IMG/VR virus record: IMGVR_UViG_3300024951_000014
Location: 1 to 47,406 of that record
Origin: a virus
Lineage: Duplodnaviria; Caudoviricetes
Length of the DNA: 47,406 bases
Reading direction: 5' to 3' (one strand)
This document shows positions 1 to 47,184 of the stretch, piece by piece. The position numbers were made by a program, and so were the translations under genes. Each line of letters starts with the position of its first letter. Position 1 is the first letter of the stretch. Under the pieces are notes generated by a model. The model saw only the letters and a program-made list of their open reading frames with translations. It was not told the DNA's origin and searched no databases.

Positions 1-1002
1 CTAATTGGAAAGCGTGCCTTGGATGATCCAAGAAATCAGCTCGTTTTCCATTACGTGAGAATCGTAGAAGAACTGCAGCCGAAGTATTGTGTTTTTGAGA
101 ATGTCAAAGGGCTGACTCTTGGAAAGCATTCGGAGTTTCTTAAAGAGCTCATTGCGGCTCTCGGTGACGCCGGTTATGACGTAGTGCTCCCGTATCAGGT
201 GCTCAATGCCGCGGATTACGGGGTACCGCAGGATCGAAAACGACTTTTTTTGATGGGCACAAAGCGCGGGCTCAAAGCTCCTCATTACCCAATGCCTCTC
301 GATCATCGAGTGACAGTAGAGGAAGCGATTGGGGATTTGCCGGATGCAAACACGTTTGCTGAATTGGTCGCAACTGACGCTGTCAGGGCGAAATGGACAA
401 CCAATTCATCATATGCACAACGTCTTCGTGACCAGCAGGATGATCCAAGCGATTTTGGCTATAAGCGTGCGTTCGACCAAGACCTGCTGAGTTCGAGCTT
501 GCGTACGGAGCACACAGCTCTGTCCCAGGAGCGCTTCATGGCTACAGAACATGGTAAGACCGAGTCTGTTAGTCGTTTCCGTAAGCTGCCCCCAGACGGC
601 CTATGTAACACGTTACGTGCCGGCACGGACAGCGCTAGGGGGGCTTTCACCTCTCCGAGACCGATCCACCCTTATCAGCCACGCGTTATAACCGTCAGGG
701 AAGCCGCCCGGCTGCACTCGTTTCCTGATTGGTTTCGTTTTCATGCGACTAAGTGGCATGGATTCCGTCAAATCGGCAACAGTGTTCCACCACTGCTAGG
801 TCGGGCAATAGCCTCGTCGATAGTAGAAGCTCTTGAAATTAAGCCGACAAAACCTCGCCGGATTCTTGATCAGGGATCAACCACGTTGCTCGGTTTGGAT
901 ATGGGGAACGCGGCACGCTATTTTGATGTGCCGCGTGACACCATCGCTCAGCGGACACGCAAAAATGTCGCATCCTCACTAATGGAAGAGACAGATGCCT
1001 GA
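1..1002 (+). CDS. DNA (cytosine-5) methyltransferase, 5'-truncated by window edge
   Basis: Frame open from base 1 (LIGKRALDDPRN, the segment that follows motif IV). Motifs VI FENVKG, VIII QDRKR, IX TVREAARLHSFP and X QIGNSVPP are present. Confidence 0.93.
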   Translation, partial: LIGKRALDDPRNQLVFHYVRIVEELQPKYCVFENVKGLTLGKHSEFLKELIAALGDAGYDVVLPYQVLNAADYGVPQDRKRLFLMGTKRGLKAPHYPMPLDHRVTVEEAIGDLPDANTFAELVATDAVRAKWTTNSSYAQRLRDQQDDPSDFGYKRAFDQDLLSSSLRTEHTALSQERFMATEHGKTESVSRFRKLPPDGLCNTLRAGTDSARGAFTSPRPIHPYQPRVITVREAARLHSFPDWFRFHATKWHGFRQIGNSVPPLLGRAIASSIVEALEIKPTKPRRILDQGSTTLLGLDMGNAARYFDVPRDTIAQRTRKNVASSLMEETDA

Positions 1003-1807
1003 GGGTAAAAAGGTTCGCCGGCCGAACCGTTACGAAGCAATTATTGCGAAGATCTTCGATAATAATTACAAAGAGGGGCTGAGCGAGTTTCAGTTTTCTC
1101 GCGCGGAAATTTCGGCGATTGCTGATGAGTTGAAGATCGTTTTGCCGAAGAATATCGGAGATATTATCTACGCTTTCCGCTATCGGTACGAGCTGCCAAA
1201 GTCAATTTTAGAGACCGCGGAAGAAGGAATGGAGTGGATAATTAAAGGCTCCGGTTCGGCTCTCTATAAATTTAAAAAGGTAAAGCTAAACCGTATACTT
1301 CCTCGCGAAGAACTGATCACTATCAAGGTGCCGGATGCGACGCCAGAGATAATCAGTGCTTACGCCTTGAGTGATGAGCAAGCTCTGCTCGCTAAGGTTC
1401 GATACAATCGTTTAATTGATATTTTTTTAGGTATTACTGCCTACTCCTTGCAAAATCATCTCCGTACTCATGTCAAAGCGATTGGTCAGATCGAAATTGA
1501 CGAGGTCTATGTCGGAATCGACAGGCATGGCCGGCAGTTTGTCGTGCCGGTGCAGGCGAAAGGAGGGAGTGATAAGCATGGTGTAGTGCAGACCGATCAA
1601 GACATTGCTTATTGTAAAGCCAAGTTTCCTGATCTTGTCTGTAGAGCAGTGTCGGTCCAATTTATGACTAATGGACGAATAGCGATGTTTGAACTTACTG
1701 TTCAGGATGATGAGGTTAAGGTGGTAGAGGAGAGGCACTACCAACTGGTAAGCGCCTCATCAATTACTGTCGATGATTTGCGAGCGTATTCTTCGCACGG
1801 TAACTAG
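995..1807 (+). CDS. Putative type II restriction endonuclease (PD-(D/E)XK fold)
   Basis: Overlaps the MTase stop. QIEIDEVY...VPVQAKGG resembles a PD-(D/E)XK catalytic motif. AT-richer than the phage core. Confidence 0.72.
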   Translation: MPEGKKVRRPNRYEAIIAKIFDNNYKEGLSEFQFSRAEISAIADELKIVLPKNIGDIIYAFRYRYELPKSILETAEEGMEWIIKGSGSALYKFKKVKLNRILPREELITIKVPDATPEIISAYALSDEQALLAKVRYNRLIDIFLGITAYSLQNHLRTHVKAIGQIEIDEVYVGIDRHGRQFVVPVQAKGGSDKHGVVQTDQDIAYCKAKFPDLVCRAVSVQFMTNGRIAMFELTVQDDEVKVVEERHYQLVSASSITVDDLRAYSSHGN

Positions 1808-6532: not shown

Positions 6533-6582
6533 ATATTAACCATAAAGGTTAACTATGCAAGAAAAAATAACCTCCTGGGTGT
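6533..6582 (-). promoter_or_regulatory. pL/oL: sigma70-like promoter with CI operators
   Basis: TTGCAT(6560-6555)-16 nt-TAATAT(6538-6533). Operators TAACCATAAAGGTTA (6537-6551) and TAACCTCCTGGGTGT (6568-6582) match those between cI and cro. Confidence 0.7.
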
Positions 6583-7943
6583 TATGAGGCTGAGCTGTTC
6601 GTTGCCAGGTCTATCAGCAATTCACGTGACTGTCTGTCTATTCGTTTTTTAAATTCGTACTCAATTTCTTCGTCAGTTAGACCGGTTATATTTTTATTGA
6701 AGTAGTCCGTTAGTACGGCCTGCATCTGAGGAATGGTGTATTTATCAAAATTTGGTACATAGTTTGTAATGTGGCGGCGTCGATTAATTTCATAAAAAGC
6801 CCTAACAAAACTTTTTGGTGTTATTGGCGCTTTAAATCTCTTTACTAATCGGTCGACATATAAATCTAGTTGATGAAGCAGTTTTTCGTCATCGATTTCA
6901 GAAAAAAAGAACAGCCAACCTCGGCTCTTTTCTTGAAAGACACATCCCGTAATTCGCATGTTCAGGCGCCAAGTTAAAAAGTCTAGACTTTTTATTTTTG
7001 AATGTTTGTAGCCTGTAAATATCGAGGCAAGCGAGTCTTTTAATTTTTCAATGGAGCCAGAGCGGGCAGTGGTGATAGGGGTGTCAACTTTTTTAATTAT
7101 TTCGTTTCGGAATTCATAGCCTAAGTAGTCAAATTTTTCACCCAGCTTGCCCATGGAGGATTTATGAGGTGCCTCAATAGGGTCGTGGACTTGAAGTCCA
7201 ATGGATTTAAACTGATGAACGATTTCCTTCGCAATGTTTTCTTTATTGGTGTCGTTGCATAAAATTAGAATGTCATCGACGTAACGAAAGTATTGTGCGT
7301 CTGGTAGCGTGGAGAATTTTTTATCGATGTTTATTAGGTAGACTGCAGCTAGTACATTAGAGATGGCCAGCCCTTGTGGTACGCCTATGGTATTGGCAGT
7401 ATCAAATGAGCTGGATTTGCTAACGGTTGGTGTTGAAATAGCATTGATAATAAGATTAAGTATTATCGGAGAGCGAATTTTTGATCTCAGTCTTTTTAGA
7501 AGTTCTTCATGAAGAACCGTTGGGTAAAAATTACTTACATCTAATTTGATAAAGCTATCGTATTTTCCGGAGTCAACACAATTTTTTACAATGCGGACGG
7601 TATCTTGAGGAAGCTGAAACGAAATCGAAGACTGATATGTGTGCATTAAAACATCACAAAGAGCTCGCAGGCATATCCGATCACGAATTGTAGGGATCGA
7701 TATCTCACGGGGAGATTTTCCTCTGCCTTTGCTAACGAGTTTTAATTTGTACTTTGTAAACGCATATGTTCCGGCTTTCGCTTTTCTTGATGTAATGGCA
7801 ATTTGCTCTTTGAGCAGGCGCCAGAATTGTTTTTGGGTTAAGTTGTCAATGCCGGTGGCACGAGAAAGTACAATATGTTCGGCATAGATTTTTTTCAGGT
7901 TTTTAGTGCTGAAAGCTTTGTTGAAGTGAGCCTTGGCGCTCAT
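6582..7943 (-). CDS. Defence-associated reverse transcriptase (UG17/DRT10-like)
   Basis: SKGRGKSPREISIPTIRDR, KLDVSNFYPTV, GVPQGLAISNVLA, YFRYVDDILI and FDYLGYEF. No retron NAxxH/VTG motifs and no intron maturase/EN domain. Confidence 0.88.
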   Translation of the reverse strand: MSAKAHFNKAFSTKNLKKIYAEHIVLSRATGIDNLTQKQFWRLLKEQIAITSRKAKAGTYAFTKYKLKLVSKGRGKSPREISIPTIRDRICLRALCDVLMHTYQSSISFQLPQDTVRIVKNCVDSGKYDSFIKLDVSNFYPTVLHEELLKRLRSKIRSPIILNLIINAISTPTVSKSSSFDTANTIGVPQGLAISNVLAAVYLINIDKKFSTLPDAQYFRYVDDILILCNDTNKENIAKEIVHQFKSIGLQVHDPIEAPHKSSMGKLGEKFDYLGYEFRNEIIKKVDTPITTARSGSIEKLKDSLASIFTGYKHSKIKSLDFLTWRLNMRITGCVFQEKSRGWLFFFSEIDDEKLLHQLDLYVDRLVKRFKAPITPKSFVRAFYEINRRRHITNYVPNFDKYTIPQMQAVLTDYFNKNITGLTDEEIEYEFKKRIDRQSRELLIDLATNSSAS

Positions 7944-8515
7944 GTAGAGGTCCCTATTTCCATCGCAAAAAACATCCCGATTGGCAGTAAATACAAAATT
8001 GTCAAAGCGGTGCAGCGTTTAAGGTAGTAAAAAATAACCTTTAACCAAATAAAACAAGTCGGATGTTTGGTTAGACCGCGGCGATGATGTTTTGGCGAGG
8101 GGTGGGAAAGATACGTGTCGCAGAGAGTAATGCAGTAGTCAATATCTTCGTGGTTTTCGCAGCTTTTCAGAATCTCTTGATATCGTATGTTGATTTTTGA
8201 GATATCTGCATCCGCCGCCTTTGCTTGTGTATAAAGTTCTTGCAGGCTTTCATAGCATTCTTTTATCAGGTTGGCCCTTTCTTTGTAAGATAGTCCATTA
8301 ATGAACCCTGAAATACTTAAGATTAAGACTGAAAAGGCAACCCATGATACGTTCGCATAACTACTGGCTGTGGCTTTTAGGTAGTATACAGATACAGCTG
8401 CTGATAAAAATGAATACCAAATTAGAAGCAGTTGCGCTTGAAAGGCATTAGCGAGTAATCGTTTTTCTGCTTGAATTCTGGATTTGCGGGTCCACCAAAT
8501 GTTGTCTGCGAACAT
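7940..8515 (-). CDS. SLATT-domain transmembrane effector (SLATT_5-like)
   Basis: IWWTRKSRIQAEKRL start, two TM helices, YKERA..IKECY, ENH..IDY and a C-terminal TM. AAGGA RBS; ATGA overlap with the RT. Confidence 0.82.
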   Translation of the reverse strand: MFADNIWWTRKSRIQAEKRLLANAFQAQLLLIWYSFLSAAVSVYYLKATASSYANVSWVAFSVLILSISGFINGLSYKERANLIKECYESLQELYTQAKAADADISKINIRYQEILKSCENHEDIDYCITLCDTYLSHPSPKHHRRGLTKHPTCFIWLKVIFYYLKRCTALTILYLLPIGMFFAMEIGTST

Positions 8516-14961: not shown

Positions 14962-16989
14962 ATGTCAGAAGAGTTTCCTGATGGTGCAGAGGTGTACCGC
15001 GAATCGTATTTTCGTGGCCTTAGACCCGACCCCGATCTTTGGGTCGACGAGTGGGCAGACGAGTTCATGCGCATTCCAAAAGATACGGGAGCGCCAGAGC
15101 CCGGTAAGTATCGGACTGCGCGCACACCCTACGCCCGTGAGCCCATGCGTTGTTTGTCTCCTGCTCACCCGTGTCGTCGTGTGGTCACGATGGTGGCCTC
15201 ACAGCTTATGAAAACCCAGATCGCCTTGAACTGGATTGGTGCCTTGATCCATATGGCTCCTTCCAACATCCTGGCTTTGCTGCCCAATTTGACCTTGTCC
15301 AAACGGGTTTCCGGACGGATCAAAAAGACTATCAAGGCAACACCCGTACTGAGCGAGCGTGTTGCCGCTAACCGTTCTCGTGACACATCTAACACGATGG
15401 ACACCAAGGAGTTCGAGGGCGGCTCGCTGTACGTCAACACTGCTGGGTCGGCCGCCAACTTGTCCGAGCTATCCGCACGTTACATCTATGGTGACGAGGT
15501 AGATCGTTGGGAAAACGATGTAGGGCAAGAGGGCGATCCTGTTGCACTGGCTGAGACTCGAGCGACAAACTTTGGCCGCAACGCCAAGATTTATTTCTCA
15601 AGTTCCCCGACCATCAAGGGCGCGTCGCGGATCGCTGACCTCTTCGAGGCGAGTGACCAGCGCTATTACTATGTTCCCTGCCCGGCCTGCGGCTTTATGC
15701 AAGTGTTGGAGTGGGAGCGCCTGCTCTACGGTGAGGACTTCAAGAATGTGCATTACCAGTGCGCCGGGCCTGAATGTGACGTTCTGATTGAAGAGCATCA
15801 CAAGAGCAACATGCTCGCTCGTGGCGAATGGCGTGCACATGGCAAGGAAGGCGGCCAGACGGTCGGCTTCCATCTCAACGCGCTGTATTCGCCAATAGGT
15901 TGGCTGTCCTGGCAGTCGTTGGCGATGGAGTTCGAAGAAGCTAAGACATCACAGAAAGCCGGTGAAATGGGCTTGATGCAGGTGTTTTATAACACCCGGC
16001 TTGCCAAGGTTTGGGATAGCGCTCAAGAGCAAACCAAAGCCGAGGTCCTGCGTGATCGGTCAAGGCTAGAACTTTACGGTTTAGGTTCGATGCCGGCAGC
16101 GGTGCTGATGCTGACCGGAGCGGTCGATGTACAGGCTAATCGCTTGGAGTTAATGGTCATGGGCTTCGGTGTTGGTATGGAGCGCTGGGTTGTTGACTTC
16201 CAGGTGGTCTGGGGAGATCCCGCAAAGGAAAGTACATGGTTGGTGCTGGACGAAAAGCTCAAGGCTCGCTACCGACATCCGTGCGGTGTGGGTCTTGCAA
16301 TTCTCGCAACGGCGGTCGACTCCGGCGGTCATCATACTGATGAGGTGTATCAGTTCTGCCGCCTGCGACGTTGGCGCAACGTGTTTGCAGTTAAGGGTGC
16401 GAGCAAGCCCGGCAGGAATGTCATTGCACAGCGTCCGTCCATGATGGATGTGACCTGGAAAGGTCAGACCGAACGCAATGGCGTTGAGCTGTGGTTTGTA
16501 GGGACAGACACTGCGAAGGATTGGATCTATAACCGCTATTCATTTGAATCGGGACCTGGTGCGCTCCACTTTCCTAATGATCTGCCGGATGAGTTCTTTG
16601 ACCAGTGCGTAGCCGAGCATAAGGTTGCTCGCAAGGTTAGGGGGAAGGTGCGTACCGAGTGGGTGAAGGGGCATGGCGAACGCAACGAAGCCCTCGACCT
16701 GATGGTGTATAGCCTGGCCATGGCGCACTACTTGGGCATCAACCGGTATCAGGAGCATGACTGGGATCGGGTACGGCAGGCCCTGGCCCAGTCTGGCTTG
16801 TTTGACGACGCCTTGGGCATCAAGCCTGTACGGGGCGAGCGTGTCGAGGAAGACGAAATTGCTGTGCCTGTGGCCGTAAGACAGGCGCAGCCCGCACCAC
16901 CACCTGCTGCCCCGGTCGTGCAACCGCGACCTGCAGCATCACCACCTCAACGCCGCAGCTCCACCAGCGGTTACCTCAAGAGACGCTGA
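14962..16989 (+). CDS. Terminase large subunit (lambda GpA family)
   Basis: ASQLMKT, GDEVDRW, SSPTIKG, VPCPACG and RNEALD. Confidence 0.95.
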   Translation: MSEEFPDGAEVYRESYFRGLRPDPDLWVDEWADEFMRIPKDTGAPEPGKYRTARTPYAREPMRCLSPAHPCRRVVTMVASQLMKTQIALNWIGALIHMAPSNILALLPNLTLSKRVSGRIKKTIKATPVLSERVAANRSRDTSNTMDTKEFEGGSLYVNTAGSAANLSELSARYIYGDEVDRWENDVGQEGDPVALAETRATNFGRNAKIYFSSSPTIKGASRIADLFEASDQRYYYVPCPACGFMQVLEWERLLYGEDFKNVHYQCAGPECDVLIEEHHKSNMLARGEWRAHGKEGGQTVGFHLNALYSPIGWLSWQSLAMEFEEAKTSQKAGEMGLMQVFYNTRLAKVWDSAQEQTKAEVLRDRSRLELYGLGSMPAAVLMLTGAVDVQANRLELMVMGFGVGMERWVVDFQVVWGDPAKESTWLVLDEKLKARYRHPCGVGLAILATAVDSGGHHTDEVYQFCRLRRWRNVFAVKGASKPGRNVIAQRPSMMDVTWKGQTERNGVELWFVGTDTAKDWIYNRYSFESGPGALHFPNDLPDEFFDQCVAEHKVARKVRGKVRTEWVKGHGERNEALDLMVYSLAMAHYLGINRYQEHDWDRVRQALAQSGLFDDALGIKPVRGERVEEDEIAVPVAVRQAQPAPPPAAPVVQPRPAASPPQRRSSTSGYLKRR

Positions 16990-16990
16990 T

Positions 16991-17197
16991 ATGTCCTTTA
17001 CCCAAAAGCACCTCGACGCGGTTGAGGCGGCCATCGCTCGGGGTGAAAAAGTCGTGCGCTACACCGACCGCACCGTCGAATACCGCACAGTCGACGAGCT
17101 GCTCAAAGCACGCGAAGAAATACGCATGTCACTGATCAGTGCGGCCGGGCCACGCTCTCGGGTGGTTCGGTTGTACCACGGAGGCAAAGGACTCTAA
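16991..17197 (+). CDS. Head-tail joining protein (gpW-like)
   Basis: 68 aa between terL and portal; V.Y.DRTVEYRTVDEL. Confidence 0.85.
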   Translation: MSFTQKHLDAVEAAIARGEKVVRYTDRTVEYRTVDELLKAREEIRMSLISAAGPRSRVVRLYHGGKGL

Positions 17198-18678
17198 TGG
17201 CTCGCCACTTTCCGACGCTCACCCGTAACGGATTCGTGTTGCCGTCGAACATCAAGGCCAGTTACGAAGGCGCCGGGGAGGGCCGCCGCTCAACTGGCTG
17301 GGATGCTCCTGACAACGGGATCAACAGCATCAACACCCCGGCCTTGCGCAACTTGCGTTCACGGTCTCGGGCAGCGGTTCGCAACGACCCGTATGCCTAC
17401 AACGTGATCGACAAGCGCGTCAGCAACTTGATCGGCACCGGCATCACGCCAAGACCGAAAACCGACGACGAAGCCCTGCGCAAACTGCTGCAGGAACTCT
17501 GGGACGATTGGGTCGATGAATCGGACGCCGATGAGCGCACCGACTTCAACGGCCAGCAGGCGCTGGTTGCTCGCACAGTAGAAACCTCGGGCGAATGTTT
17601 TGTGCGGCTACGACCGCGTGGTCTGGACGAAGGCCTCGCGGTGCCGTTGCAGTTGCAGATTCTGGCGCCGGAATTTGTGCCACACGACAAGTTCGAAACC
17701 ACCAAAACCGGCAACTTTATCCGCGCCGGTATTGAGTTCACCCCGGACGGCAAACGGGTGGCGTACTGGATGTACCTGTCGCACCCGCGTGATGCGTCGT
17801 CGCTGAACGCCGGTTACAACCAACTGGTGCGAGTGCCGGCCGCGCAGGTGCTGCACATCTTCGAACCGGTCGAACCGGGACAACTGCGCGGCGTGCCGCG
17901 ATTGTCGCCGGTGCTCAAGCGCCTGCGCAGTCTCGACAACTACGACGACGCGGTGTTGTTCCGCCAAGAAGTAGCCAACCTGTTTGCAGGTTTCATCAGT
18001 CGACCAGCGCCGGACTCCGGGCAGACGCCCAGAGATCCCGTCACCGGCCAGCCACTGATTCCCGATCGTGACGGCTTTACCCCGATGGTCGCACTGGAGC
18101 CCGGCACCATGCAGGAGCTGGGGCCCGGTGAAGAGGTTGAGTTCTCCAAGCCGCCGGACGCGGGCAACAACTATCCGGACTTCATGCGGCAGCAGCTGAT
18201 GGCTGCAGCTGCGGGAACGGGTACGCCTTACGAGATCCTCACTGGCGACATGCGCGAGGTTAACGACCGGGCACTGCGGGTCGTGCTCAATGAGTTTCGC
18301 CGCCGCCTGGAGCAGCTGCAATTCGGCGTTTACGTGCATCAGCTTTGCCGCCCGGTGCGGGCCGCCTGGATGGACATGGCGGTGTTGTCCGGTGTTCTGG
18401 TGTTGGACGACTACGCCCTGCGGCGCCGGCATTACCTGCGTACCCGGTGGGTGCCACAAGGGTGGGCCTACATACAGCCGGTTCAAGACGTTCAGGCGCG
18501 GCGGATGGAAGTCCAAGCGGGCTTTGCTTCACGCAGTGAGATGGTCCTGCGCACCGGCTACGACGCGGAAACGGTCGACGCGGAAAACGCCGCTGACTTA
18601 GCTCGGGCCACCACCCTTGGCCTCAATTACACAACTCTCGAAGCCTTCGTCCCAGTCGACGACAAGGAGCAATCATGA
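17197..18678 (+). CDS. Portal protein, lambda family
   Basis: LRSRSRAAVRNDPYA, RGVP.L.P and W.YIQP.QD. Confidence 0.95.
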   Translation: MARHFPTLTRNGFVLPSNIKASYEGAGEGRRSTGWDAPDNGINSINTPALRNLRSRSRAAVRNDPYAYNVIDKRVSNLIGTGITPRPKTDDEALRKLLQELWDDWVDESDADERTDFNGQQALVARTVETSGECFVRLRPRGLDEGLAVPLQLQILAPEFVPHDKFETTKTGNFIRAGIEFTPDGKRVAYWMYLSHPRDASSLNAGYNQLVRVPAAQVLHIFEPVEPGQLRGVPRLSPVLKRLRSLDNYDDAVLFRQEVANLFAGFISRPAPDSGQTPRDPVTGQPLIPDRDGFTPMVALEPGTMQELGPGEEVEFSKPPDAGNNYPDFMRQQLMAAAAGTGTPYEILTGDMREVNDRALRVVLNEFRRRLEQLQFGVYVHQLCRPVRAAWMDMAVLSGVLVLDDYALRRRHYLRTRWVPQGWAYIQPVQDVQARRMEVQAGFASRSEMVLRTGYDAETVDAENAADLARATTLGLNYTTLEAFVPVDDKEQS

Positions 18679-36169: not shown

Positions 36170-36964
36170 ATGTCCACACCCATCATCCCTTGGATGGGCG
36201 GCAAACGCCGCCTGGCCGATCGCCTCATCCCGCTTTTTCCACCACACGAATGCTACGTCGAAGTCTTTGCCGGCGGTGCCGCGCTGTACTTCATGCGTCC
36301 CCAGGCCGCGCCGGTTGAAGTCCTCAACGACATCAACGGCGACCTGGTCACGCTGTACCGCGTCGTGCAGAACCACCTCGAAGAGTTCGTGCGCCAGTTC
36401 AAATGGGCGTTGAGCTCGCGCCAGGTGTTCGAATGGCAGAAGATGACCCGCCCTGAAACCCTCACCGACATCCAGCGCGCCGCCCGATTCTTCTATTTGC
36501 AGCACCATGCCTTCGCCGGCAAGGTCACCGGACAAACGTTCGGTACCGCGACCACCGGCCCGGCCATCAACCTGCTGCGGATCGAGGAAAACCTCTCGGC
36601 CGCCTGGCAGCGTCTATCGGGTACTTACGTGGAAAACCTGCCCTGGCTTGAATGCGTCGAACGCTACGACCGTGCCCACACCTTCCACTACATGGACCCG
36701 CCTTATTGGCAAACCGCCGGCTATGGCGTGGACTTTCCGTTTGAGAACTACGAGCGGATGGCCGACTTCATGCGCCGATGCAAAGGCAAGGTGATGGTCA
36801 GCATCAACGATCACCCGGATATCCGGCGAGTGTTCGAGGGGTTCCACTTTGAAACCTTGGATATCCGTTACACCACCACTAATCAGCGGCAGGGAAAGGC
36901 CGAAGTCAGTGGTGAGCTGGTGATCATGAATTGGGAGCCGGCGGCGTTGGGCGGACTGTTCTGA
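36170..36964 (+). CDS. DNA adenine methyltransferase (D12/Dam-like class)
   Basis: W.GGKR, YVEVFAGG, LNDIN and MDPPY. Confidence 0.93.
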   Translation: MSTPIIPWMGGKRRLADRLIPLFPPHECYVEVFAGGAALYFMRPQAAPVEVLNDINGDLVTLYRVVQNHLEEFVRQFKWALSSRQVFEWQKMTRPETLTDIQRAARFFYLQHHAFAGKVTGQTFGTATTGPAINLLRIEENLSAAWQRLSGTYVENLPWLECVERYDRAHTFHYMDPPYWQTAGYGVDFPFENYERMADFMRRCKGKVMVSINDHPDIRRVFEGFHFETLDIRYTTTNQRQGKAEVSGELVIMNWEPAALGGLF

Positions 36965-37055
36965 TCACCAAAAAGGGAATCCTGGAGAGCCGAGCCTGTT
37001 AGTCCTCCAACACAATTTTTGGTGAACTGTCCCTGCGTCTGTAGAGAATTTGAGC

Positions 37056-37113
37056 GATTACTATTGGCCGATTCCTACCTTTCGCGACGGGCTGCATTCG
37101 GCCAAAAGCAGCC
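37056..37113. repeat. Double 24-bp inverted-arm site A (TGGCCG / CGGCCA cores)
   Basis: gattactat-TGGCCG-attcctacc, linker tttcgcgacg, ggctgcatt-CGGCCA-aaagcagcc. Confidence 0.7.
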
Positions 37114-37247
37114 ACTGATGGAGTAACGAAAAATGCGAGCTAAGCTTGCTTCTACTGTGTATTGGCAACAGCCTCAGCCCATCACAATGGCTGGCTCCCT
37201 CGGGCAAGCGACCCATAGCGCCAAGCAGAAGCATTCAAGGAGGCCGC

Positions 37248-37955
37248 ATGAAAGAACTCCCAATTCTATTCTGCGCTCCGTTAGTGCGTGCGATCCTGAG
37301 CGGTCAAAAAACTGTGATTCGTAGTGCGGTGAAGCACGATCCGGTGAACGTGATCGCGCTCATCGGTCGAGACGATAAGCCCAAGAATAAATTTGGACTG
37401 TGCCTCACGCACCACAACGTTATCAACAAGCACTACTCGTGTCCGTATGGGAAGCCGGGAGACCGACTATGGGTACGCGAGACCTGGGCGGATGTGAACA
37501 TGTATGGGGCGCCTGCTTTGGCTTATCGGGCCGATGGAGACATTCGCAATCTGATGGAGGAGAAAAGCTTCCTCAATGACAGCGGTGCGTTTAACTACGA
37601 TGACCCGCGATCCAAGCCGTACCAGTTCGGTTGCTGGGTCGATGACTTGATCTCTGGCGCGGAAGCCAGCTGGCGCCCACCCGCCCATATGCCACGCTGG
37701 GCCAGCCGAATTCTGTTGGAGATAACCGACGTTCACGTTGAGAAACTGCAAGATATTAGCGAAGAACAGGTGATCGCCGAAGGTATCGGCGTGTCAATTT
37801 GTCAGCCGCACCTGGAAACATCCCCAACCAGGCACCCAAGTAAGTTGACGGCAGTCCATGATTTTCCTGGACATTGGGACTCCATCAACGGCGCTGGTAC
37901 CTGGGATTCAAACCCATGGGTCTGGGTCGTCGAGTTCAAGCGGGTGGTGCCATGA
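37248..37955 (+). CDS. Phage-associated hypothetical protein (ASCH-like family)
   Basis: MKE.PILF...VRAIL.G.KT, CPYGKPGDRLWVRETW, HMPRWASRI.LEIT and NPWVWVVEF. Confidence 0.8.
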   Translation: MKELPILFCAPLVRAILSGQKTVIRSAVKHDPVNVIALIGRDDKPKNKFGLCLTHHNVINKHYSCPYGKPGDRLWVRETWADVNMYGAPALAYRADGDIRNLMEEKSFLNDSGAFNYDDPRSKPYQFGCWVDDLISGAEASWRPPAHMPRWASRILLEITDVHVEKLQDISEEQVIAEGIGVSICQPHLETSPTRHPSKLTAVHDFPGHWDSINGAGTWDSNPWVWVVEFKRVVP

Positions 37956-38005
37956 TCGCCCTCGCTTGGCGCGCCTACGTATACTGCTACAAGGGGCCGC
38001 GATAA
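37952..38005 (+). CDS. 17-aa micro-ORF (MIALAWRAYVYCYKGPR)
   Basis: ATGA overlap with the preceding gene. Confidence 0.3.
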   Translation: MIALAWRAYVYCYKGPR

Positions 38006-38172
38006 ATAAAACCGCCCCATCGGCCACCGTGATGAGCCCGTGGGGCGGACATCTCAACAGTAGCTCACCCTGCCAACCACTTCAGGAGAGGAGCTGCAAG
38101 TAATGCAACTGGCGAGGTGAACGAACAAACCATAGCTCACTCGCACTCAACCTGCCTCAGCCAAAAATGAGT

Positions 38173-38230
38173 GACAGCTTTGGGTCGTTTTCTGCCTCTC
38201 GCGACGGGCAGGAAACGGCCAGAAGCGGTC
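38173..38230. repeat. Double 24-bp inverted-arm site B (GGGTCG / CGGCCA cores)
   Basis: gacagcttt-GGGTCG-ttttctgcc, linker tctcgcgacg, ggcaggaaa-CGGCCA-gaagcggtc. Confidence 0.75.
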
Positions 38231-38381
38231 AGTCGCGAAAGACACATCAAAATCACTGATTGCTAAGGCAATCTGGCACTTTTTGGAGTTAGGCTGGCTC
38301 TATATGTTGCATTCGTCGAGAAGCGCGCCCTAAAAAAGGCATTTTCATTACAATTCAATGACAAGCGTTTCGGGCCAGCAG

Positions 38382-38744
38382 ATGAAAGTCAGAGCTACAG
38401 TCATATGCGAGAGAGATAGGGAAATCTTGTTCGTTCGCAAACAGAGATCAAAATGGTCTTTGCCTGGTGGCAAGGTGGAAGCTGGCGAAGCTATCGCTGG
38501 AGCTGCCGCTCGAGAACTCCAAGAAGAAACCGGGTTAAATGTTGATCAGCTCCTGTACATTTTTGAGTTCGATGCAGGCAACACACGCCACCATGTTTTT
38601 GAGGCCTCTGTTCCAGATGCCGAAAACGCCGCACCTCAAAATGAAATCATCGAGTGCATTTGGCATTCGCTGAGTACGTTTTATGACCTAGACACAAGCG
38701 AAGCTACAAAATCAATTGTCAGATCATTTCTACGGCGCCTTTAG
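38382..38744 (+). CDS. NUDIX hydrolase
   Basis: GGKVEAGEAIAGAAARELQEETGL Nudix box. Confidence 0.92.
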   Translation: MKVRATVICERDREILFVRKQRSKWSLPGGKVEAGEAIAGAAARELQEETGLNVDQLLYIFEFDAGNTRHHVFEASVPDAENAAPQNEIIECIWHSLSTFYDLDTSEATKSIVRSFLRRL

Positions 38745-38780
38745 TCCCTCCCTGAATCATCCCGTCGCATCATTCCGAGT

Positions 38781-38838
38781 GACCGCAATGGGTCGGTTGC
38801 CGTCCTTCGCGACAGACAAAATTCGACCCAAAGCTGCC
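38781..38838. repeat. Double 24-bp inverted-arm site C (GGGTCG / CGACCC cores)
   Basis: gaccgcaat-GGGTCG-gttgccgtc, linker cttcgcgaca, gacaaaatt-CGACCC-aaagctgcc. Confidence 0.75.
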
Positions 38839-38893
38839 TTTGACGTCAGCGAGCCGGATTTCAACATTCCTGCCAAGGGAGAGTGTTAAGAGG

Positions 38894-39697
38894 CTATTGC
38901 GAAATAATGGGATCAAACCCAGAAGCCTTCAGCTTCTGTGCGGCGTTAGAGCCTTGCAGGAAGGCAATCAAGGCTTCTGCCGCCTGCGGTTGCGCAGCAT
39001 TATTTGCAACGGCCGCAGCGATCACATTCACCCTTTGAACGGCATCTGGCAGCGGCCCAACAATTTGAATGCCCGGCACAGCCATCAGCTCGCTCATTTG
39101 CTGTAATCCAACCTCTGCATCACCGCGCAGAAGGGCATGTCCAACCAGCTCTGGCGCTTCGACGACAACGCTCTTTGACTTCAATTGATCAGCGATGCCC
39201 AATTGCGGAAACATCGTCCCCGCAGCATAAACCCCGCTGACCCCACTTGAGTATGCCACTGACTTCGCTGCGAGCAGGGTGTGGCGTAGGTTGTCAATGT
39301 TTGTGATACCCGGCTTTGGGATGCCAGACTTGACTGCCAGCCCGATGCGAGAGGTGGCCAGATAAGAAGCGGTTTCCCTGCGCAAGTACCCCAACTTTAT
39401 TTGTTCATCAATCGACGTGCCAATCATGATGACCACGTCAGCGGTTTCCCCGTTTTTGATGCGTACGGGCACTGCATCGGAAGCCGTTCCAAACGATGCG
39501 CCCCAGACAAATTTCAAGCGATGCCCGGTTGTCTTTTCAAAATCGGGGGTCAGTTGCTCGAAAAAAGGCTTGAGTGCCGTTGTCGCCAGAAAATGGAGCT
39601 CGCTCGCCTTGGCGCAGTTTCCCAGTTGCAGTGCCCAAAAAACACCCAGTAATGTTGCGTACCTCAAAAGGAAGTTAATGCGCCGCATGTGATGCAT
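38894..39697 (-). CDS. Periplasmic substrate-binding protein (ModA-like fold)
   Basis: Signal peptide; FEKTTGH, GE.ADVVI, SVAYS.G.SG.Y and QQ.SEL..VPG. Start uncertain. Confidence 0.8.
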   Translation of the reverse strand: MHHMRRINFLLRYATLLGVFWALQLGNCAKASELHFLATTALKPFFEQLTPDFEKTTGHRLKFVWGASFGTASDAVPVRIKNGETADVVIMIGTSIDEQIKLGYLRRETASYLATSRIGLAVKSGIPKPGITNIDNLRHTLLAAKSVAYSSGVSGVYAAGTMFPQLGIADQLKSKSVVVEAPELVGHALLRGDAEVGLQQMSELMAVPGIQIVGPLPDAVQRVNVIAAAVANNAAQPQAAEALIAFLQGSNAAQKLKASGFDPIISQ

Positions 39698-39836
39698 CCC
39701 CACTGTACTGAGTGTTCCCTCAGTGATTCGATTAAAAAAGGCGACGAGTGCGTAAACAAACCATGTTCCCAATGAGTAGCCGGCCTTAACCCCGGCTATT
39801 GGACTTCATATTGCCCAACACCTGGGGCAAGCCAAC

Positions 39837-40607
39837 TCATATGGATTTCGATTGAAGGGTTTTGACCACTGCTTCACCGAGAGCCTTCGCTGACGCCGGG
39901 TTTTGACCCGTGACCAGACGGCCATCGATCACGACTCGATTTTCGAAGTTGGGTGCCTTTTCAAATTTCGCACCGGCATTCTTCAAGGCGCTTTCCAATA
40001 CAAACGGAACGATCTTGTCGTAACGGCGCGCAATCTCTTCTTCAGCGGTGAATGCGGTAAGACGACGACCTTTGATCAAGCTCTGGCCGTTGCTGAGTTT
40101 GACGTCGATCAGCCCGGCAGGACCATGACATACGGCACTGACAACACCGTTGCTTTCATAGATGGTGCGCACGATTTCATCAAGTTCAGGGTTGCGCACG
40201 AAGTCCCACATCGGGCCATGTCCACCGACAAGCAGGACAGCGGCGTATTTCGATGGTTCGACATCCGAAAGCTTGAGGGTGTTACCCAGTTTGTTCCGGT
40301 GTTCAGGATTGGTCCAAAACTTAAGGGTTGCTTGATCCCTAAGGTCAAAACCATCGAACGGAGCAAGACCGCCTTTTGGGCTTGCAATATCGTAATTGAG
40401 TCCGGCGTCGTCAAAGACCTCGACGGGATGCGTAAGCTCTGGCATCCAGAAACCACCGACAAGGTTCGGTGCCTTCTTGTCCAGGCTGGAAACCACAATC
40501 AGTATTTTTTCGCTGCCCTGTTTTTCCTGGGCGACAACAGGACTGGTAGCAACTGCAAGCGCGGCAATTGCGCCTGCAAGACCAGCAAAATACTTAGCAA
40601 TCGACAT
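39837..40607 (-). CDS. DJ-1/PfpI family (type 1 GATase-like) protein with signal peptide
   Basis: ELTHP, ASPKGG, GGHG.MWD, AVCHGP and TGQNPAS. Confidence 0.9.
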   Translation of the reverse strand: MSIAKYFAGLAGAIAALAVATSPVVAQEKQGSEKILIVVSSLDKKAPNLVGGFWMPELTHPVEVFDDAGLNYDIASPKGGLAPFDGFDLRDQATLKFWTNPEHRNKLGNTLKLSDVEPSKYAAVLLVGGHGPMWDFVRNPELDEIVRTIYESNGVVSAVCHGPAGLIDVKLSNGQSLIKGRRLTAFTAEEEIARRYDKIVPFVLESALKNAGAKFEKAPNFENRVVIDGRLVTGQNPASAKALGEAVVKTLQSKSI

Positions 40608-40794
40608 GTTCAGATCCTTCAGTTGTTGGCTGTCCAGATCACTTTATCCGCGAGCAGAGACGCAAAGTAGCCAACCAAACCCGAACAGACTGTTTAATAA
40701 ATTTACCTAATGGCTTTGGATTGGTAATTAAAATCTGCGTAGAGTGCGTATCAATAACCCGGCTACAAATGTGCCAAACGGATAAAGAGATGAG

Positions 40795-41697
40795 ATGAAC
40801 CACCCCGATAGCTTTGATGGATTATCAGAATTTCTAGCCATTTCCAGACGGCTGAGTATTCGTAAAGCTGCGCTTGACCTTGGTAAAACCCCAGGTTCAA
40901 TCACCCAGGCGTTGCAGAAACTGGAGCGTCGCCTGGGTGTACCGCTGTTCCATCGCACCACTCGAAAGATGGCGCTGACAGAAGCGGGGGAAAATTTACT
41001 GTTGAAAATCGAGCCCGCAGCACAAGCCATTGCAACGGGTCTCGAGGACGCTGCACAGTCGGCAAAGGCACCCTCGGGAACACTGAGGCTGATTGTGGAG
41101 CGCCTTGCGTTGCCGCACGTTATTGAGCCTCTACTTCCTGCATTTCGAGAGGCCTGGCCAAATTTGAACGTGGACATCACGGTCAGTAACCGTCATGACA
41201 ATTTCGTATCGGAAGGTTATGACGCAGGTATCCTGATCGGTTCCTACATTGAGCAAGACATGATCGCAGTCAGGCTTTCGAAACCGTTCCAATGGGCTGT
41301 CTTTGGAGCGCCAGCCTATTTCAAGGCTAACGGAAAGCCGCAAGTTACCAGCGACCTTGTGCACCACGAATGCATTCGATTCCGTCGCCCGGAAAAGGGC
41401 GACATCTATCGATGGGAGTTCATTGAAAATAACGAAAGTATGAGGATCGAGCCGAACGGCCCGATTACAGTCAATGATGGAGAGCTGATGCGCAGCCTTG
41501 CCGTACAAGGGGTTGGACTCATTTACTCTTCAACATTTCACACCTCCCGTGAACTCGCCAGCGGTACGCTTGAGCCGGCGCTACTTGACTGTTCTCCGGG
41601 TAATGATGGGCTCTTTCTTTATTTTTCAAGAGCAGCAAAAAACCAACCGAAATTACGTGCTTTTATTGAGATGTGCTCAAAGATATTAATAATTTAA
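40795..41697 (+). CDS. LysR-family transcriptional regulator
   Basis: HTH ...LERRLGV.LF.RTTR...LTEAG; divergent from the DJ-1/SBP genes. Confidence 0.93.
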   Translation: MNHPDSFDGLSEFLAISRRLSIRKAALDLGKTPGSITQALQKLERRLGVPLFHRTTRKMALTEAGENLLLKIEPAAQAIATGLEDAAQSAKAPSGTLRLIVERLALPHVIEPLLPAFREAWPNLNVDITVSNRHDNFVSEGYDAGILIGSYIEQDMIAVRLSKPFQWAVFGAPAYFKANGKPQVTSDLVHHECIRFRRPEKGDIYRWEFIENNESMRIEPNGPITVNDGELMRSLAVQGVGLIYSSTFHTSRELASGTLEPALLDCSPGNDGLFLYFSRAAKNQPKLRAFIEMCSKILII

Positions 41698-41929
41698 CTA
41701 ATAAGCACTCGATGCTAAACATATAAGGGGGCGCTGATTTTTTGCAATGCCTCCATGCCTTGAACTTTAAATGGTCGTGTTGTTCTTGCGTGCGCGCCTT
41801 ATTTAGATAGATCGCTGCAGAAAAAACGGTGATCGTTGCCTCTGTGAGCAGTTCAGACTCAGTCAAGACTGAAGTTAGCTCGACCAATTTTCTCCCCTGA
41901 CCTTCAATGCCCAGTAGGCTGCTTACGAT

Positions 41930-41953
41930 GACCGCTATTGGCCGATTGCTGTC
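41930..41953. repeat. Single 24-bp inverted-arm site D (TGGCCG core)
   Basis: gaccgctat-TGGCCG-attgctgtc. Confidence 0.7.
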
Positions 41954-42156
41954 GTATATAGCACGCCCAATGAGAATAAACGTTTAGGGCATATTTAGGG
42001 CAGGATCAGGGCCGCCACAGGCCGCAGGATGCCCGATACAGATTGATAAAAGCCCGTTTTTTGCGGTCTAGAGCGGACCAGAGGGAGTGCTGAAGGGGTT
42101 CGAGCCTCTATCCATGTGACTGTTTTCAAATAAAGGGCCTTGCGGCCCTTCTTTCC

Positions 42157-43812
42157 TTATCCAATACGGGGCATGCGTATCGATCCGCCATCACCCCCTG
42201 GCCGTTCTCTGCTAGGAGGATCCCGAGGAGGTGGGTCACGGTGAGGCGGCTCAGGACGATCCACCTCGGGCGCATTAGGCTCTGGTCGTCGGAAGGTATG
42301 AGGCTCTCTCGGCCCTCGCTCATGACGAGCGTCACGCGCAGCTTGCCGTCTTGCTTCATCTTCCCGACGGGCTATTTCCGCATCAAGTTGTTGAAGCTCA
42401 CGTTGTTTAGATAAGTAAGCGGCTGAGATTCTGTTAAATAAACTGGTTTTATTCGTCAGCTCTGTGGTCCTCGCTTGGAGATCTGCCTCCACCTTTGCTT
42501 TCTGTTCAATGATCCTTTCTTGATCGAAAATAGCATTTTCCTTAACCGCGCCTTGTGCTTGCTTCAATTCAGTAGCTTTTGCAAGGTACGCGCGCACCAT
42601 CGCGAGCCTACGTGCATAGAATGAGCGAGTAGGGGACGTGAGCGTGAAATGAACAGGATCATTAGGTACTCGCATTTCTATGCCCAAACGTGCCATCACA
42701 GAACGTAGCTTCCGATGTGAACTGGAATTCCAATTCCATCCTGTAGGTATCGTCATGTCAGTGGCTTGACCAAACATGTGTTCACTTCTGACGTATTTGC
42801 CAACAGGAGTTCCATCTTTTTTTGCTTTTGAATAAAGGTCCGATTGTCTCCAAGGTGTTCTTGCCCCGGATGTGACCGAGATTCCTTTGAATCCGGAAGC
42901 CTTTAGGTCAATAACGTCTTGTTTGAGTTTTTCGTTAGTGATCTTATCAGGCTCAGCAAAAAGAAGATTAATTTCATCTATCTTGTTTGCTAGTTCAGGG
43001 TCTAAATACTTGCCTCCGAGCATTTGGTCTGTTGCCCACGGTTTTCCAGATACGTCCATTGTTCCGTCTTTTATAACATCTAAAAAAGGGTCTTTTTTCT
43101 TGTCGTATGGTATTTTAGGATTGAACGGTGGAAGGTCTTTTTTAGAGTCCAGATCTAACCCGAGTAGCTTCATGCCAAGCTTTGATTTGCGTTGGTTAAT
43201 TACTGAGTCCGTAGCGGCGATAGCGTCTTCGGTTTCTTTGATTTTCTTGTCGTAATCAGCAATCAGGTTGTTAACTTTATCTATAAGTTTTGATGTGTCT
43301 GCTGATTGGATTGCAAGTTCTTTATTGGCTTGATCAAGCTGCTCATTTTCCAGCTCATTTGTTTCCCATGTTGTAATAAAGGTAAGCCAAGCCCCGAACC
43401 ATGTTTCATCAAATAATTGTTCTTCGTCGACGTTTGGTATTACACAAAAGGCAAATGGGTAGCCCATCGGTGTGAAAACTCTGTAATTTTCATCTTCTGA
43501 TGCGTGTTTAAGGTTCTTAGTGAATTCTTCACTCCAGTTGTTTTTTTGATACGAAAGCCAAGAAGGAGAAAATGACGTTCGGCCTTCTTCATCACGGAAA
43601 CACCAAAGATGGCCGGTGTATTTTGCTAACTGAAATTTTAAAGGTAATGCGTCCACCAGTTCGCCTGGCAGTTCAGAAGGTTCAATCAGTCCATTTTTGG
43701 ATTTCTGCTCATCCTCGTAATAATATGGGTATAGCTCAGAGAACTCGTACGAGGTGCATCCCGTCATGAGTAGGGAAGCTATAGCTACAGCTCCGTAGAC
43801 AGTTCTTGCCAT
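42157..43812 (-). CDS. Lipoprotein with coiled coils and an M15-type zinc peptidase domain
   Basis: Lipobox LMTGC; TSGART..RQ..LY, SEHMFGQATD (SxHxxGxAxD) and NDPVHF; Pro/Arg-rich tail. Confidence 0.78.
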   Translation of the reverse strand: MARTVYGAVAIASLLMTGCTSYEFSELYPYYYEDEQKSKNGLIEPSELPGELVDALPLKFQLAKYTGHLWCFRDEEGRTSFSPSWLSYQKNNWSEEFTKNLKHASEDENYRVFTPMGYPFAFCVIPNVDEEQLFDETWFGAWLTFITTWETNELENEQLDQANKELAIQSADTSKLIDKVNNLIADYDKKIKETEDAIAATDSVINQRKSKLGMKLLGLDLDSKKDLPPFNPKIPYDKKKDPFLDVIKDGTMDVSGKPWATDQMLGGKYLDPELANKIDEINLLFAEPDKITNEKLKQDVIDLKASGFKGISVTSGARTPWRQSDLYSKAKKDGTPVGKYVRSEHMFGQATDMTIPTGWNWNSSSHRKLRSVMARLGIEMRVPNDPVHFTLTSPTRSFYARRLAMVRAYLAKATELKQAQGAVKENAIFDQERIIEQKAKVEADLQARTTELTNKTSLFNRISAAYLSKQRELQQLDAEIARREDEARRQAARDARHERGPREPHTFRRPEPNAPEVDRPEPPHRDPPPRDPPSRERPGGDGGSIRMPRIG

Positions 43813-44046
43813 ATTGTTTTTTCCTTGGTTGGTTTAAATTTATTAAAGTTGATATCGGCGATTTTTTCTTAAAGCTGCTCATAGCTTTGCCGTGTCGTGT
43901 GCGTGTGGGTAGCTCAAGGTTTCTGTTCTTTAGGAGGTTGTAGCAACTGTAGTCTTTTTTTTGGTTTTCCAAGGCCGGATGAGTCTGGTTCTGTGCTTAC
44001 GTGCAACCAGTGGTTTATCAGATGGCCCGGTTTACGGGAGTAGACC

Positions 44047-44126
44047 AGGTGGTGGTGGTGGTGGTGGTGGTGGTGGTGGTGGTTGATCTTGTAGAGCAGG
44101 GAAGGGAGCAGGTCTGAATTGGGCAT
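44047..44126 (-). pseudogene. Truncated copy of the MPNSDLLPSLL gene ending in a CAC repeat
   Basis: The first 15 codons match 44619-44575, then the sequence runs into 11 His codons. Confidence 0.65.
44048..44083 (+). repeat. (GGT)12 microsatellite
   Basis: Perfect 36-nt trinucleotide run. Confidence 0.95.
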
Positions 44127-44339
44127 CGCGAATCCTCCGTGAAGAACTCAGCGTAGTAGTCGAACGTGGAGAGGGTCATTTACTGCCGCCCCTAAGCAAG
44201 GTGGGACTCCCCAAGACTACAAACAAAGCACCGGTAATGCCCGTGACAGGCATGTGCTACGGTCTGCTAAAAAATTGCTACAAAGTGAACAGTTGCAGCA
44301 GGGATAGCTAGGTGGGCCGGTACTTTAGTGGAGTACTAC

Positions 44340-44357
44340 GTCCAATCCATCATCGGC
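44340..44357 (-). other. Relic dusA-type att core
   Basis: Reverse complement GCCGATGATGGATTGGAC encodes (A)PMMDW(T), the conserved DusA N-terminal motif. TGCTA repeats lie nearby (44255-44281). Confidence 0.6.
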
Positions 44358-44377
44358 CTGCTTCTTCGGGTTGAAGC

Positions 44378-44401
44378 CGCTGCTTCGGGTCGTTAGCTGC
44401 T
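44378..44401. repeat. Single 24-bp inverted-arm site E (GGGTCG core, degenerate)
   Basis: cgctgcttc-GGGTCG-ttagctgct. Confidence 0.5.
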
Positions 44402-44409
44402 GACACTAT

Positions 44410-44619
44410 TCATTCTGGCGACATGAGAACGGCGAGAGTCAGCTTTATGAACTCCTCATTCTTGTCGATCGTATCCAGAGCCCCACGCACATTATCTGCC
44501 ACGTCGCCTGCTCCTCGTTGTTCAGCCCAGTTAGAGATTTCCATGATGGCGGCCTCAAGAGCGAGTTGGTTTTCATTGATCTTGAACAGCAGGGAAGGGA
44601 GTAGGTCTGAGTTCGGCAT
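44410..44619 (-). CDS. Small hypothetical protein (MPNSDLLPSLLFKINENQLALEAA...)
   Basis: 69 aa with a GGGGA RBS; lies beside the att duplication. Confidence 0.7.
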   Translation of the reverse strand: MPNSDLLPSLLFKINENQLALEAAIMEISNWAEQRGAGDVADNVRGALDTIDKNEEFIKLTLAVLMSPE

Positions 44620-44694
44620 CGTGATTTCCCCATGAAAAAATTTAGCGTAGCAGGTGGGAACAGTAGCGATGCACAGGGAGGAGCAGATTGAACA

Positions 44695-44893: not shown

Positions 44894-44941
44894 TGGATTG
44901 CAAATCCACCTACGCCGGTTCGATTCCAACCTCGGCCTCCA
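44894..44941 (+). other. 3' fragment of tRNA-Cys(GCA), att duplication
   Basis: Anticodon arm TGGA-TTGCAAA-TCCA, T arm GGTTCGATTCC and a CCA end; no D arm or 5' acceptor strand. Confidence 0.85.
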
Positions 44942-46838: not shown

Positions 46839-47069
46839 TCATCTGAACCGCGGCAGCGGCGGCTCGACAGGTTTGAGCGAAGACAGCGTGTTACGAATCA
46901 GCGGCGTGTCCTTCTCGATGTCGTTCAGGCGATCACGAATCCTGAGGGCAGTCGGGTGCCCGCCTTGATGATCGACCCAGTCGGCGATTTCCTTGCACGC
47001 CGCGGCCAAGCGAACCTGGCGCGAGTCGAGCAGGGTGAGCAGGGTGGTGATGGACTCTTTTTCGGACAT
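46839..47069 (-). CDS. Small hypothetical protein
   Basis: GGAGG RBS; helical, 76 aa. Confidence 0.65.
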   Translation of the reverse strand: MSEKESITTLLTLLDSRQVRLAAACKEIADWVDHQGGHPTALRIRDRLNDIEKDTPLIRNTLSSLKPVEPPLPRFR

Positions 47070-47184
47070 GGCAAACACCTCCGTTCAAGAAACCTGGCAG
47101 TGGCAGCAAAAAGCCCGCTAGGAGCGAGCTTTCTGCCGATGGGTTCGCTGTTCCCTCAGCCATTTTTCAGTATAGACCCGGACT

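Follow-up and report, generated by a model that had tools for sequence, protein, structure and literature searches.

The closest described systems in which genes are gained and lost at short repeated sites are the integrons, whose attC sites carry the core boxes GTTRRRY and RYYYAAC, and the pdif (dif) modules of Acinetobacter plasmids, which lie between inversely oriented sites and are shuffled by XerC/XerD supplied in trans. In phages, Nilsson, Karlsson and Haggard-Ljungquist reportedly described in 2004 inverted repeats on either side of the Z/fun hotspot in P2-like coliphages, with site-specific recombination proposed in the title. An engineered parallel is recombinase-mediated cassette exchange (RMCE) with heterospecific Cre/lox spacers, where each spacer recombines only with its like. 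Here we examined a 47,406-nucleotide stretch of a Caudoviricetes virus (IMG/VR record IMGVR_UViG_3300024951_000014, the whole of which is called the window below), in which eight 24-bp sites between 37056 and 44401 delimit an array of unrelated gene modules. The results demonstrated that these sites are not attC, dif or REP (or REPIN) repeats and that they belong to a widespread low-copy family with two core types, marking the edges of movable gene modules. The array thus appears to reflect cassette exchange of a new type, for which we infer the enzyme.

Each site consists of a 9-bp arm, a 6-bp core and a second 9-bp arm, and is called T when its core is TGGCCG and G when its core is GGGTCG. 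The sites of the window are as follows.

37056..37079, + strand: site 1, T; degenerate arms, score 11; left half of double A
37090..37113, - strand: site 2, T; score 34; right half of double A, with TCGCGA in the linker 37080-37089
38173..38196, + strand: site 3, G; score 31; left half of double B
38207..38230, - strand: site 4, T; right half of double B and left edge of the NUDIX module
38781..38804, + strand: site 5, G; right edge of the NUDIX module and left half of double C
38815..38838, - strand: site 6, G; right half of double C
41930..41953, + strand: site 7, T, single; score 33
44378..44401, + strand: site 8, G, single; degenerate, score 19

The coordinates, cores and orientations of all eight sites were as given in the initial annotation, a reading made from the sequence alone, and so were the three pairs spaced 34 bp apart with 10-bp linkers centred on TCGCGA. 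The sites were also intergenic as claimed, all lying outside the likely cargo genes; an 88-aa ORF that begins just after 38838 is spurious. Six of them score 26-34, sites 1 and 8 being the degenerate exceptions. The consensus drawn from the sites themselves matched eight times in 37000-44500 and nowhere in 1-36999 (shuffle mean 0.03, maximum 1 of 300), which is a circular test. We therefore relied on a profile built from 89 double sites of other genomes: across the whole 47.4 kb its only matches scoring at least 8 were the eight sites, and the shuffled window gave a mean of 0.08 matches at a score of at least 10. An Rfam scan of the window returned a tRNA-Leu only and no family at the repeats. 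The claim that the sites are neither attC nor dif stood, since GTTRRRY occurred in none of the eight sites on either strand within 12 bases, and the 11-bp XerC/XerD arms gave scattered two-mismatch matches in 37000-44500 and none at the sites. No integron integrase (IntI) was present in the array. The REP/REPIN tag GTAG or GGAG was absent within 12 bases of six of the eight sites and had no fixed place in the other two.

A pattern for the 58-bp double site, with the cores left open, matched 89 stretches of the GTDB collection. Pseudomonas accounted for 73 of the 80 titles listed, the others including Massilia, an Oxalobacteraceae isolate and metagenome-assembled genomes. Among the 178 cores, GGGTCG occurred 81 times and TGGCCG 61 times, and the hybrids GGGCCG and TGGTCG were each found once. 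A pattern for the single site had matches in 115 of 121 Pseudomonas genomes (a sample that includes one unpublished genome, G104, on which alone no claim rests) with 0-13 exact matches per genome and 0-2 for the control; with one mismatch allowed, there were 21-60 matches per genome (control, 4-16), clustered in a few regions or islands. Ordinary REP behaviour was thus not seen, REP families being unlike this low-copy, clustered pattern. With a stricter pattern, matches were found in 6 of 61 genomes from across the phylum and in none for the control. Four unpublished genomes were present in another of the genome samples, and none of them served as a locus. Units of three and four sites at the 34-bp period were present, and Massilia has dense arrays in which the sites lie between single genes and paired sites are spaced by 34 or 78-79 bp. 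The arrays of one Massilia genome (G005; loci L185, L186, L189 and L190), whose 78-79 bp pairs enclose a conserved-looking longer spacer, are a better model array than the window. The system is therefore not local to a prophage end, as had been supposed: the family is genus-wide, its sites are also found far from prophages, and a related enterobacterial form flanks the fun(Z) gene of phage P2 (NC_001895). The two P2 sites share the 9-6-9 geometry and have arms like those of the window; the one near 15335, with the core GTGCCA, is the best-scoring position of the 5-kb stretch, and the second, near 17430 with the core TCGCTC, was read by eye.

The sites of the window separate the following cargo.

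37248..37955, + strand: cargo 1, a 235-aa phage-type protein (PHROG 874, function unknown)
38358..38744, + strand: cargo 2, a NUDIX hydrolase
38894..41697: cargo 3, divergent genes for a solute-binding protein (- strand), a DJ-1/PfpI protein (- strand) and a LysR regulator (+ strand)
42157..43812, - strand: a 551-aa protein, function unknown, with weak leads to M15 peptidases and endolysins

The labels NUDIX, solute-binding protein (SBP_bac_11), DJ-1/PfpI and LysR were borne out, and the ASCH-like label of cargo 1 was reduced to a weak lead to ASCH/PUA-like proteins, as there was no Pfam match and the nearest family-bearing Atlas cluster was 31% ASCH, with a score of 0.88 that is below the tool's bar. 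The NUDIX module provides direct evidence for edges at the sites. The segment delimited by the cores of sites 4 and 5 (about 38216-38795) is also present in genomes G035 and G296: homology with G035 spans the left double and ends at the right core, and homology with G296 begins directly past the left core position and ends directly past the right core. A further genome (G336) has the left edge in common with the window, and two others (G181 and G229) share the NUDIX gene only, with no sites in the fetched flank. Distant copies of cargo 3 (71-78%) were found in four genomes, with a T site just past LysR in two and none in the fetched flank of the other two. The closest homologue of cargo 1 was 53% identical, and none of 80 distant viral homologues had a site within 1.5 kb, which is as expected if an ordinary phage gene had been captured once. 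One sequencing-run contig spans 36000-44038 without a joint at the sites; as contigs drop rare variants, it is uninformative on activity.

Breakpoints were then examined more widely. Among 233 loci, 16 of 174 junctions not of the IS type (between loci at least 90% identical) fell in the interval from 1 base inside a core to 11 bases beyond it, compared with 4.2 for random intergenic positions (maximum 11 of 300); the 16 correspond to about 11 distinct junctions after merging reciprocal rows, and the null was not merged likewise. This intergenic null replaced a first count with a uniform null and IS junctions included (39 of 265 vs 6.3). Among the junctions are those of modules bounded by sites on both sides (L200/L203, 99%; L189/L192, 97%), and edges occur at either core of a double. 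The enrichment at cores is thus real but modest. The expectation that synteny breaks fall at the sites held for the edges of the NUDIX module and, as a modest excess, overall, whereas most junctions lie elsewhere.

The arrangement of cores was analysed in 450 de-duplicated pairs of neighbouring sites. The two sites of 34-bp doubles faced inward in 111 of 176 cases, while cargo segments (n = 232) were flanked by outward-facing sites in 142 cases, by direct sites in 76 and by inward-facing sites in 14. Direct pairs around cargo of 150-5000 bp had like cores in 62 cases and unlike cores in 14; for direct pairs 34 bp apart, the numbers were 8 and 52 (Fisher p = 4e-16 against the cargo pairs). A single crossover by a tyrosine recombinase at a like core leaves like-core direct repeats, and the same may apply to these sites. 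Since like cores prevail around direct cargo and unlike cores in direct doubles, the bias suggests core-specific crossover. The rule of one T end and one G end per cargo block applies to three blocks of the window and is not general (outward-flanked cargo, 82 unlike vs 60 like). A gene polarity with the 5' end at the T core was tried and rejected, the 5' end being at T in 32 cases and at G in 24 (p = 0.35), with 15 mixed and 11 without an ORF. With no fixed gene direction, the system is less integron-like than the initial annotation suggested.

An unidentified recombinase, possibly acting in trans, had been proposed, and a candidate was found; it has no match in the window. Clustering of 1401 ORFs near the sites revealed a tyrosine recombinase of ca. 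205 aa in six loci, four of them with close inward-facing sites, so that the gene occupies the inward slot filled by the linker in a double. The association was then tested on loci fetched by the recombinase protein alone. A half-site (core and arm) lay within 110 bp downstream of the gene in 42 of 90 loci, compared with 5 of 90 on the wrong strand and 0-3 of 51-73 in eight control windows. Upstream, a half-site (arm and core) was found within 200 bp in 38 of 95 loci, a count including two loci (L244 and L324) with mis-sliced upstream windows, and in 2-5 of 59-80 for the controls. For Pseudomonas loci, the values were 20 of 28 downstream and 18 of 25 upstream. When both half-sites were detected, G upstream with T downstream was the commonest arrangement (9 of 23). 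A scan for full sites around 96 genes gave only 17 at distances up to 250 bp, because the inner arm beside the recombinase gene is unlike that of ordinary doubles, consisting of a GCGAC-type arm with a hairpin. For enterobacterial-type copies of the recombinase, the flanking cores are TCGCTC and GTGCCA, with similar arms; these two cores also border P2 fun(Z). The recombinase was not seen in the listed array stretches of the Massilia genome G005.

Residues R59, K87, H156, R159, H182 and Y191 were invariant in 35 recombinase sequences. The predicted fold (pLDDT 85.6) is that of a tyrosine recombinase catalytic domain, with XerH, XerA and Cre as the best matches. The family is large (7999/7999 scored candidates; 375 plasmid records from many Proteobacteria) and is annotated merely as integrase or tyrosine-type recombinase. 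It passes no NCBIfam cut-off, the score for TIGR02249 being 26 bits against a cut-off of 265.

Based on these results, we consider it fairly likely that the sites are crossover sites at which the ca. 205-aa tyrosine recombinase acts in trans on double-stranded DNA, joining like core with like core; the step from association to catalysis on these sites is our inference. Enzyme monomers would be bound to the 9-bp arms, and strand exchange would span the 6-bp core, TGGCCG recombining only with TGGCCG and GGGTCG only with GGGTCG. An array would then be a chain of segments between cores, in which short inward-facing segments alternate with outward-facing cargo, the inward segment being a 28-bp arm-linker-arm spacer, the longer spacer of Massilia or a recombinase unit of ca. 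750 bp. Crossover between direct like cores would excise or insert a circle of spacer plus cargo; in the window, the predicted circles are of 1117 bp (cargo 1, via the T sites on the - strand) and 608 bp (NUDIX, via the G sites on the + strand). Two crossovers, one per core type, would replace a module, and inverted like cores would invert it.

The cores are also preferentially targeted by at least two types of IS end. Of 54 distinct IS-end-like motifs of the IS1182 type, 53 directly follow the core 5-mer, loci with IS ends at cores include L095, L105, L107, L094, L199, L398 and L400, and annotated IS1182 transposases lie at core positions in two plasmids.

Several observations weigh against this mechanism. 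Recombination is itself deduced from patterns in sequence. Of ca. 175 junctions not of the IS type, 159 lie away from sites, and part of the 62-to-14 excess of like cores may come from doubles whose second site has decayed below threshold. Within the window, no close copy is available for comparing the edges of cargo 1 and cargo 3, and the fourth block, which is ca. 99% identical in three other runs, misses the sites, as the shared stretch ends at ca. 42091 and ca. 44356, off the cores; 41930-44401 is therefore a doubtful cassette. Regarding the enzyme, about half of the recombinase loci have no half-site detectable with the Pseudomonas profile, and the recombinase is present in 25 of 121 Pseudomonas genomes while sites are present in 115, with site number not differing by recombinase presence (mean 5.4 vs 4.6, p = 0.23). 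The predicted fold lacks the usual core-binding domain. The link is one of physical association, and the gene may be a passenger between the sites of another enzyme. That other enzyme could be a host or island recombinase, with the small recombinase being one more module or serving its own unit only. The scarcity of the recombinase relative to the sites, its missing domain and the different inner arms beside its gene would all fit this explanation, which we nevertheless regard as unlikely, since the gene occupies the inward-facing slot that cargo so rarely does, the cores flanking it change with taxon together with those flanking cargo, the arms of the sites are unlike dif, and no other recombinase cluster stood out among the 1401 ORFs in an informal reading of N-terminal sequences from the 70 largest clusters, made without formal annotation.

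A pure double-strand mechanism also leaves unexplained that the inner arms of the 89 doubles (positions 16-19 vs 40-43) co-vary as complements across the linker, with z of 6-8 at four positions and 8.4 for arm 2 against arm 3. This co-variation may reflect lineage, template switching or a hairpin. If the 58-bp double were a folded single-strand substrate, comparable to attC or REPIN, a hairpin rather than a duplex would be recombined or transposed; the stable fold of double B (z -3.8 against shuffles) and the cassette-like, single-gene arrays of Massilia point in the same direction. This appears improbable, as for doubles A and C the fold is no more stable than in shuffles (z -0.8 to -1.2), neither the linker ends nor the two cores of doubles co-vary, many sites are single, triple or direct, and edges occur at either core; moreover, there is no GTTRRRY box and the recombinase scores far below the integron integrase cut-off. 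The IS-end motifs and transposases described above raise another explanation, namely that IS1182-family transposition left the repeats as scars or uses them as targets, or that they are dispersed repeats of the REP kind, their location at gene edges being a by-product. Since the IS splits a pre-existing core, the site is used by the IS and not made by it, and the junction enrichment persists with IS-type junctions excluded. Targeting by IS would also leave the two exclusive cores, the 34-bp period, the like-core bias and the recombinase association unaccounted for, and dispersed repeats fit poorly with the low, clustered copy number; we consider this explanation very improbable.

The gene set of the window is lambda-like, with integrase, terminase, portal, capsid, tail and lysis genes and a D12-class (dam-type) adenine methylase gene that ends at 36964, before the array. 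Further features place the array.

1834-2901: the prophage's own integrase, an ordinary phage integrase of 355 aa
44894..44943, + strand: 3' part of a tRNA-Cys gene (GCA anticodon), from the sequence
45137: tRNA-Leu (Rfam)

In one sequencing run (X3), the match starts at 44894 and is preceded by other letters, which we take to be the 5' half of tRNA-Cys. The tRNA-Cys fragment is thus likely the right attachment site (attR) of the prophage, which would place the array inside the prophage end, in its last 8 kb, framed by the methylase end and the fragment. In 80 related prophage loci, the sequence directly 3' of the methylase stop was highly varied, indicating a variable cargo slot; in these loci, the 384 kb downstream contained 61 loose site matches and the 730 kb upstream 24, all of them weak. 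The dam-attR slot may have gathered its modules while a host carried a recombinase unit at another location.

Other features of the prophage were also recorded. Homology repeatedly ends at the motif CCAATCCATCATC (window about 44340-44356; L082:8870, L088 and L001), which is unrelated to the 9-6-9 sites and is possibly a second kind of junction hotspot. A family of ca. 69-aa ORFs (PHROG 12397) has whole and truncated copies at 44410-44653, 44074-44146 and, further on, near 46863-47070; it occurs in a large share of the searched Pseudomonas genomes, often with a site just past the stop. Towards the left end, 6582-8515 (- strand) encodes a reverse transcriptase (PADLOC RT_UG17, E 6e-162) in a low-GC stretch with a SLATT membrane protein upstream, a candidate UG17-type anti-phage system in the prophage's left cargo slot. 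A C5 cytosine methylase and a type II restriction enzyme match lie at 19-1807 (+ strand), left of the integrase.

On plasmids, the tnfxB-tmexCD-toprJ tigecycline efflux cluster sits between two outward-facing T sites (scores 28 and 19). The loci are L399:10008-16776 in the K. pneumoniae plasmid NZ_CP075257.1 and L400:10008 and 16747-18380 in the P. aeruginosa plasmid pBM413; in pBM413, the second T site, past tmexCD-toprJ, is split by an IS1182 element. A preprint (10.1101/2021.07.26.453812), in the part consulted, places IS5/IS1182 beside tmexCD-toprJ and does not mention these sites. Weak BLAST matches to double B were found in 190 plasmid records, two of which were examined.

The movement of accessory and defence genes into and out of prophage and island hotspots still awaits an explanation; for another P2 hotspot, Rousset et al. 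2022 (PMC9122126), in the part consulted, only speculated on a mechanism and called for experiments. To this question, the present analysis contributes named sites, predicted recombining pairs and a candidate enzyme, and the window adds a clean array of several modules, statistics on core matching and, for one module, direct evidence of its edges. The chances appear evenly balanced that integrons and dif modules are joined here by a third natural system of gene cassettes, in which a roaming minimal-recombinase unit of ca. 750 bp serves Proteobacteria-wide 24-bp sites with two taxon-specific core 'addresses'. If so, it would explain the fast swapping of cargo in prophage hotspots (the dam-attR slot and P2 Z/fun) and genomic islands, and the first excision of blocks such as tnfxB-tmexCD-toprJ from Pseudomonas chromosomes. 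Since the sites are so common in Pseudomonas genomes and bracket an efflux cluster of clinical importance on plasmids, they may help to trace the origins of resistance and defence modules. For engineering, a recombinase of 205 aa that comes with two orthogonal 24-bp sites would be a compact tool.

In the literature covered, which takes in few subscription papers, we found no account of the Pseudomonas sites, their two-core grammar or the enzyme family. The part of PMC8138268 consulted describes no catalytic-only group of 200 aa, though its datasets may list the family. Compared with integrons (IntI, attI, attC and CALIN), the present family is alike in its arrays of short modules at repeated sites, in involving a tyrosine recombinase and in having arrays without a nearby enzyme; unlike integrons, it has no attC boxes, leaves gene direction free, includes multi-gene bidirectional modules and shows edges at either core, consistent with crossover there, and its candidate enzyme scores far under the integron integrase cut-off. 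It shares with pdif modules a 6-bp central region between two arms, an enzyme presumed to act in trans and modules between inversely oriented sites, as seen in the outward-flanked majority of cargo segments and in the NUDIX module, found in three contexts. It differs from pdif in its GC-rich symmetric 9-bp arms (AT-rich XerC/XerD arms in pdif), in its two fixed cores and in a mobile, site-bracketed small recombinase in place of host XerCD. The 'integron- or pdif-like' description of the initial annotation thus holds for module edges at sites and, probably, for an enzyme in trans; fixed gene direction, attC and IntI are absent.

FimB/FimE-type invertases resemble the candidate enzyme in having ca. 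200 aa, a catalytic domain only and short sites, but they flip one promoter switch whereas the present sites bound many unrelated modules. Against PRK09870 and PRK09871, which we take to be FimB and FimE, with 9-bp repeats, the candidate scored 19 and 26 bits (cut-offs, 221 and 222). Cre/lox RMCE likewise has two spacer 'addresses'; the system described here is natural, with shorter arms and a 6-bp core, and its mode of exchange is deduced. The P2 Z/fun hotspot, for which PMC6379469 and PMC9122126 cite Nilsson et al. 2004 in the parts consulted, has the same arm consensus, 9-6-9 geometry, two unlike cores and a variable prophage cargo slot. The enterobacterial sites are probably those of Nilsson et al. 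The family of the window differs from them in its TGGCCG and GGGTCG cores, 58-bp doubles and multi-module arrays, and in its hosts, which are Pseudomonas and some Betaproteobacteria.

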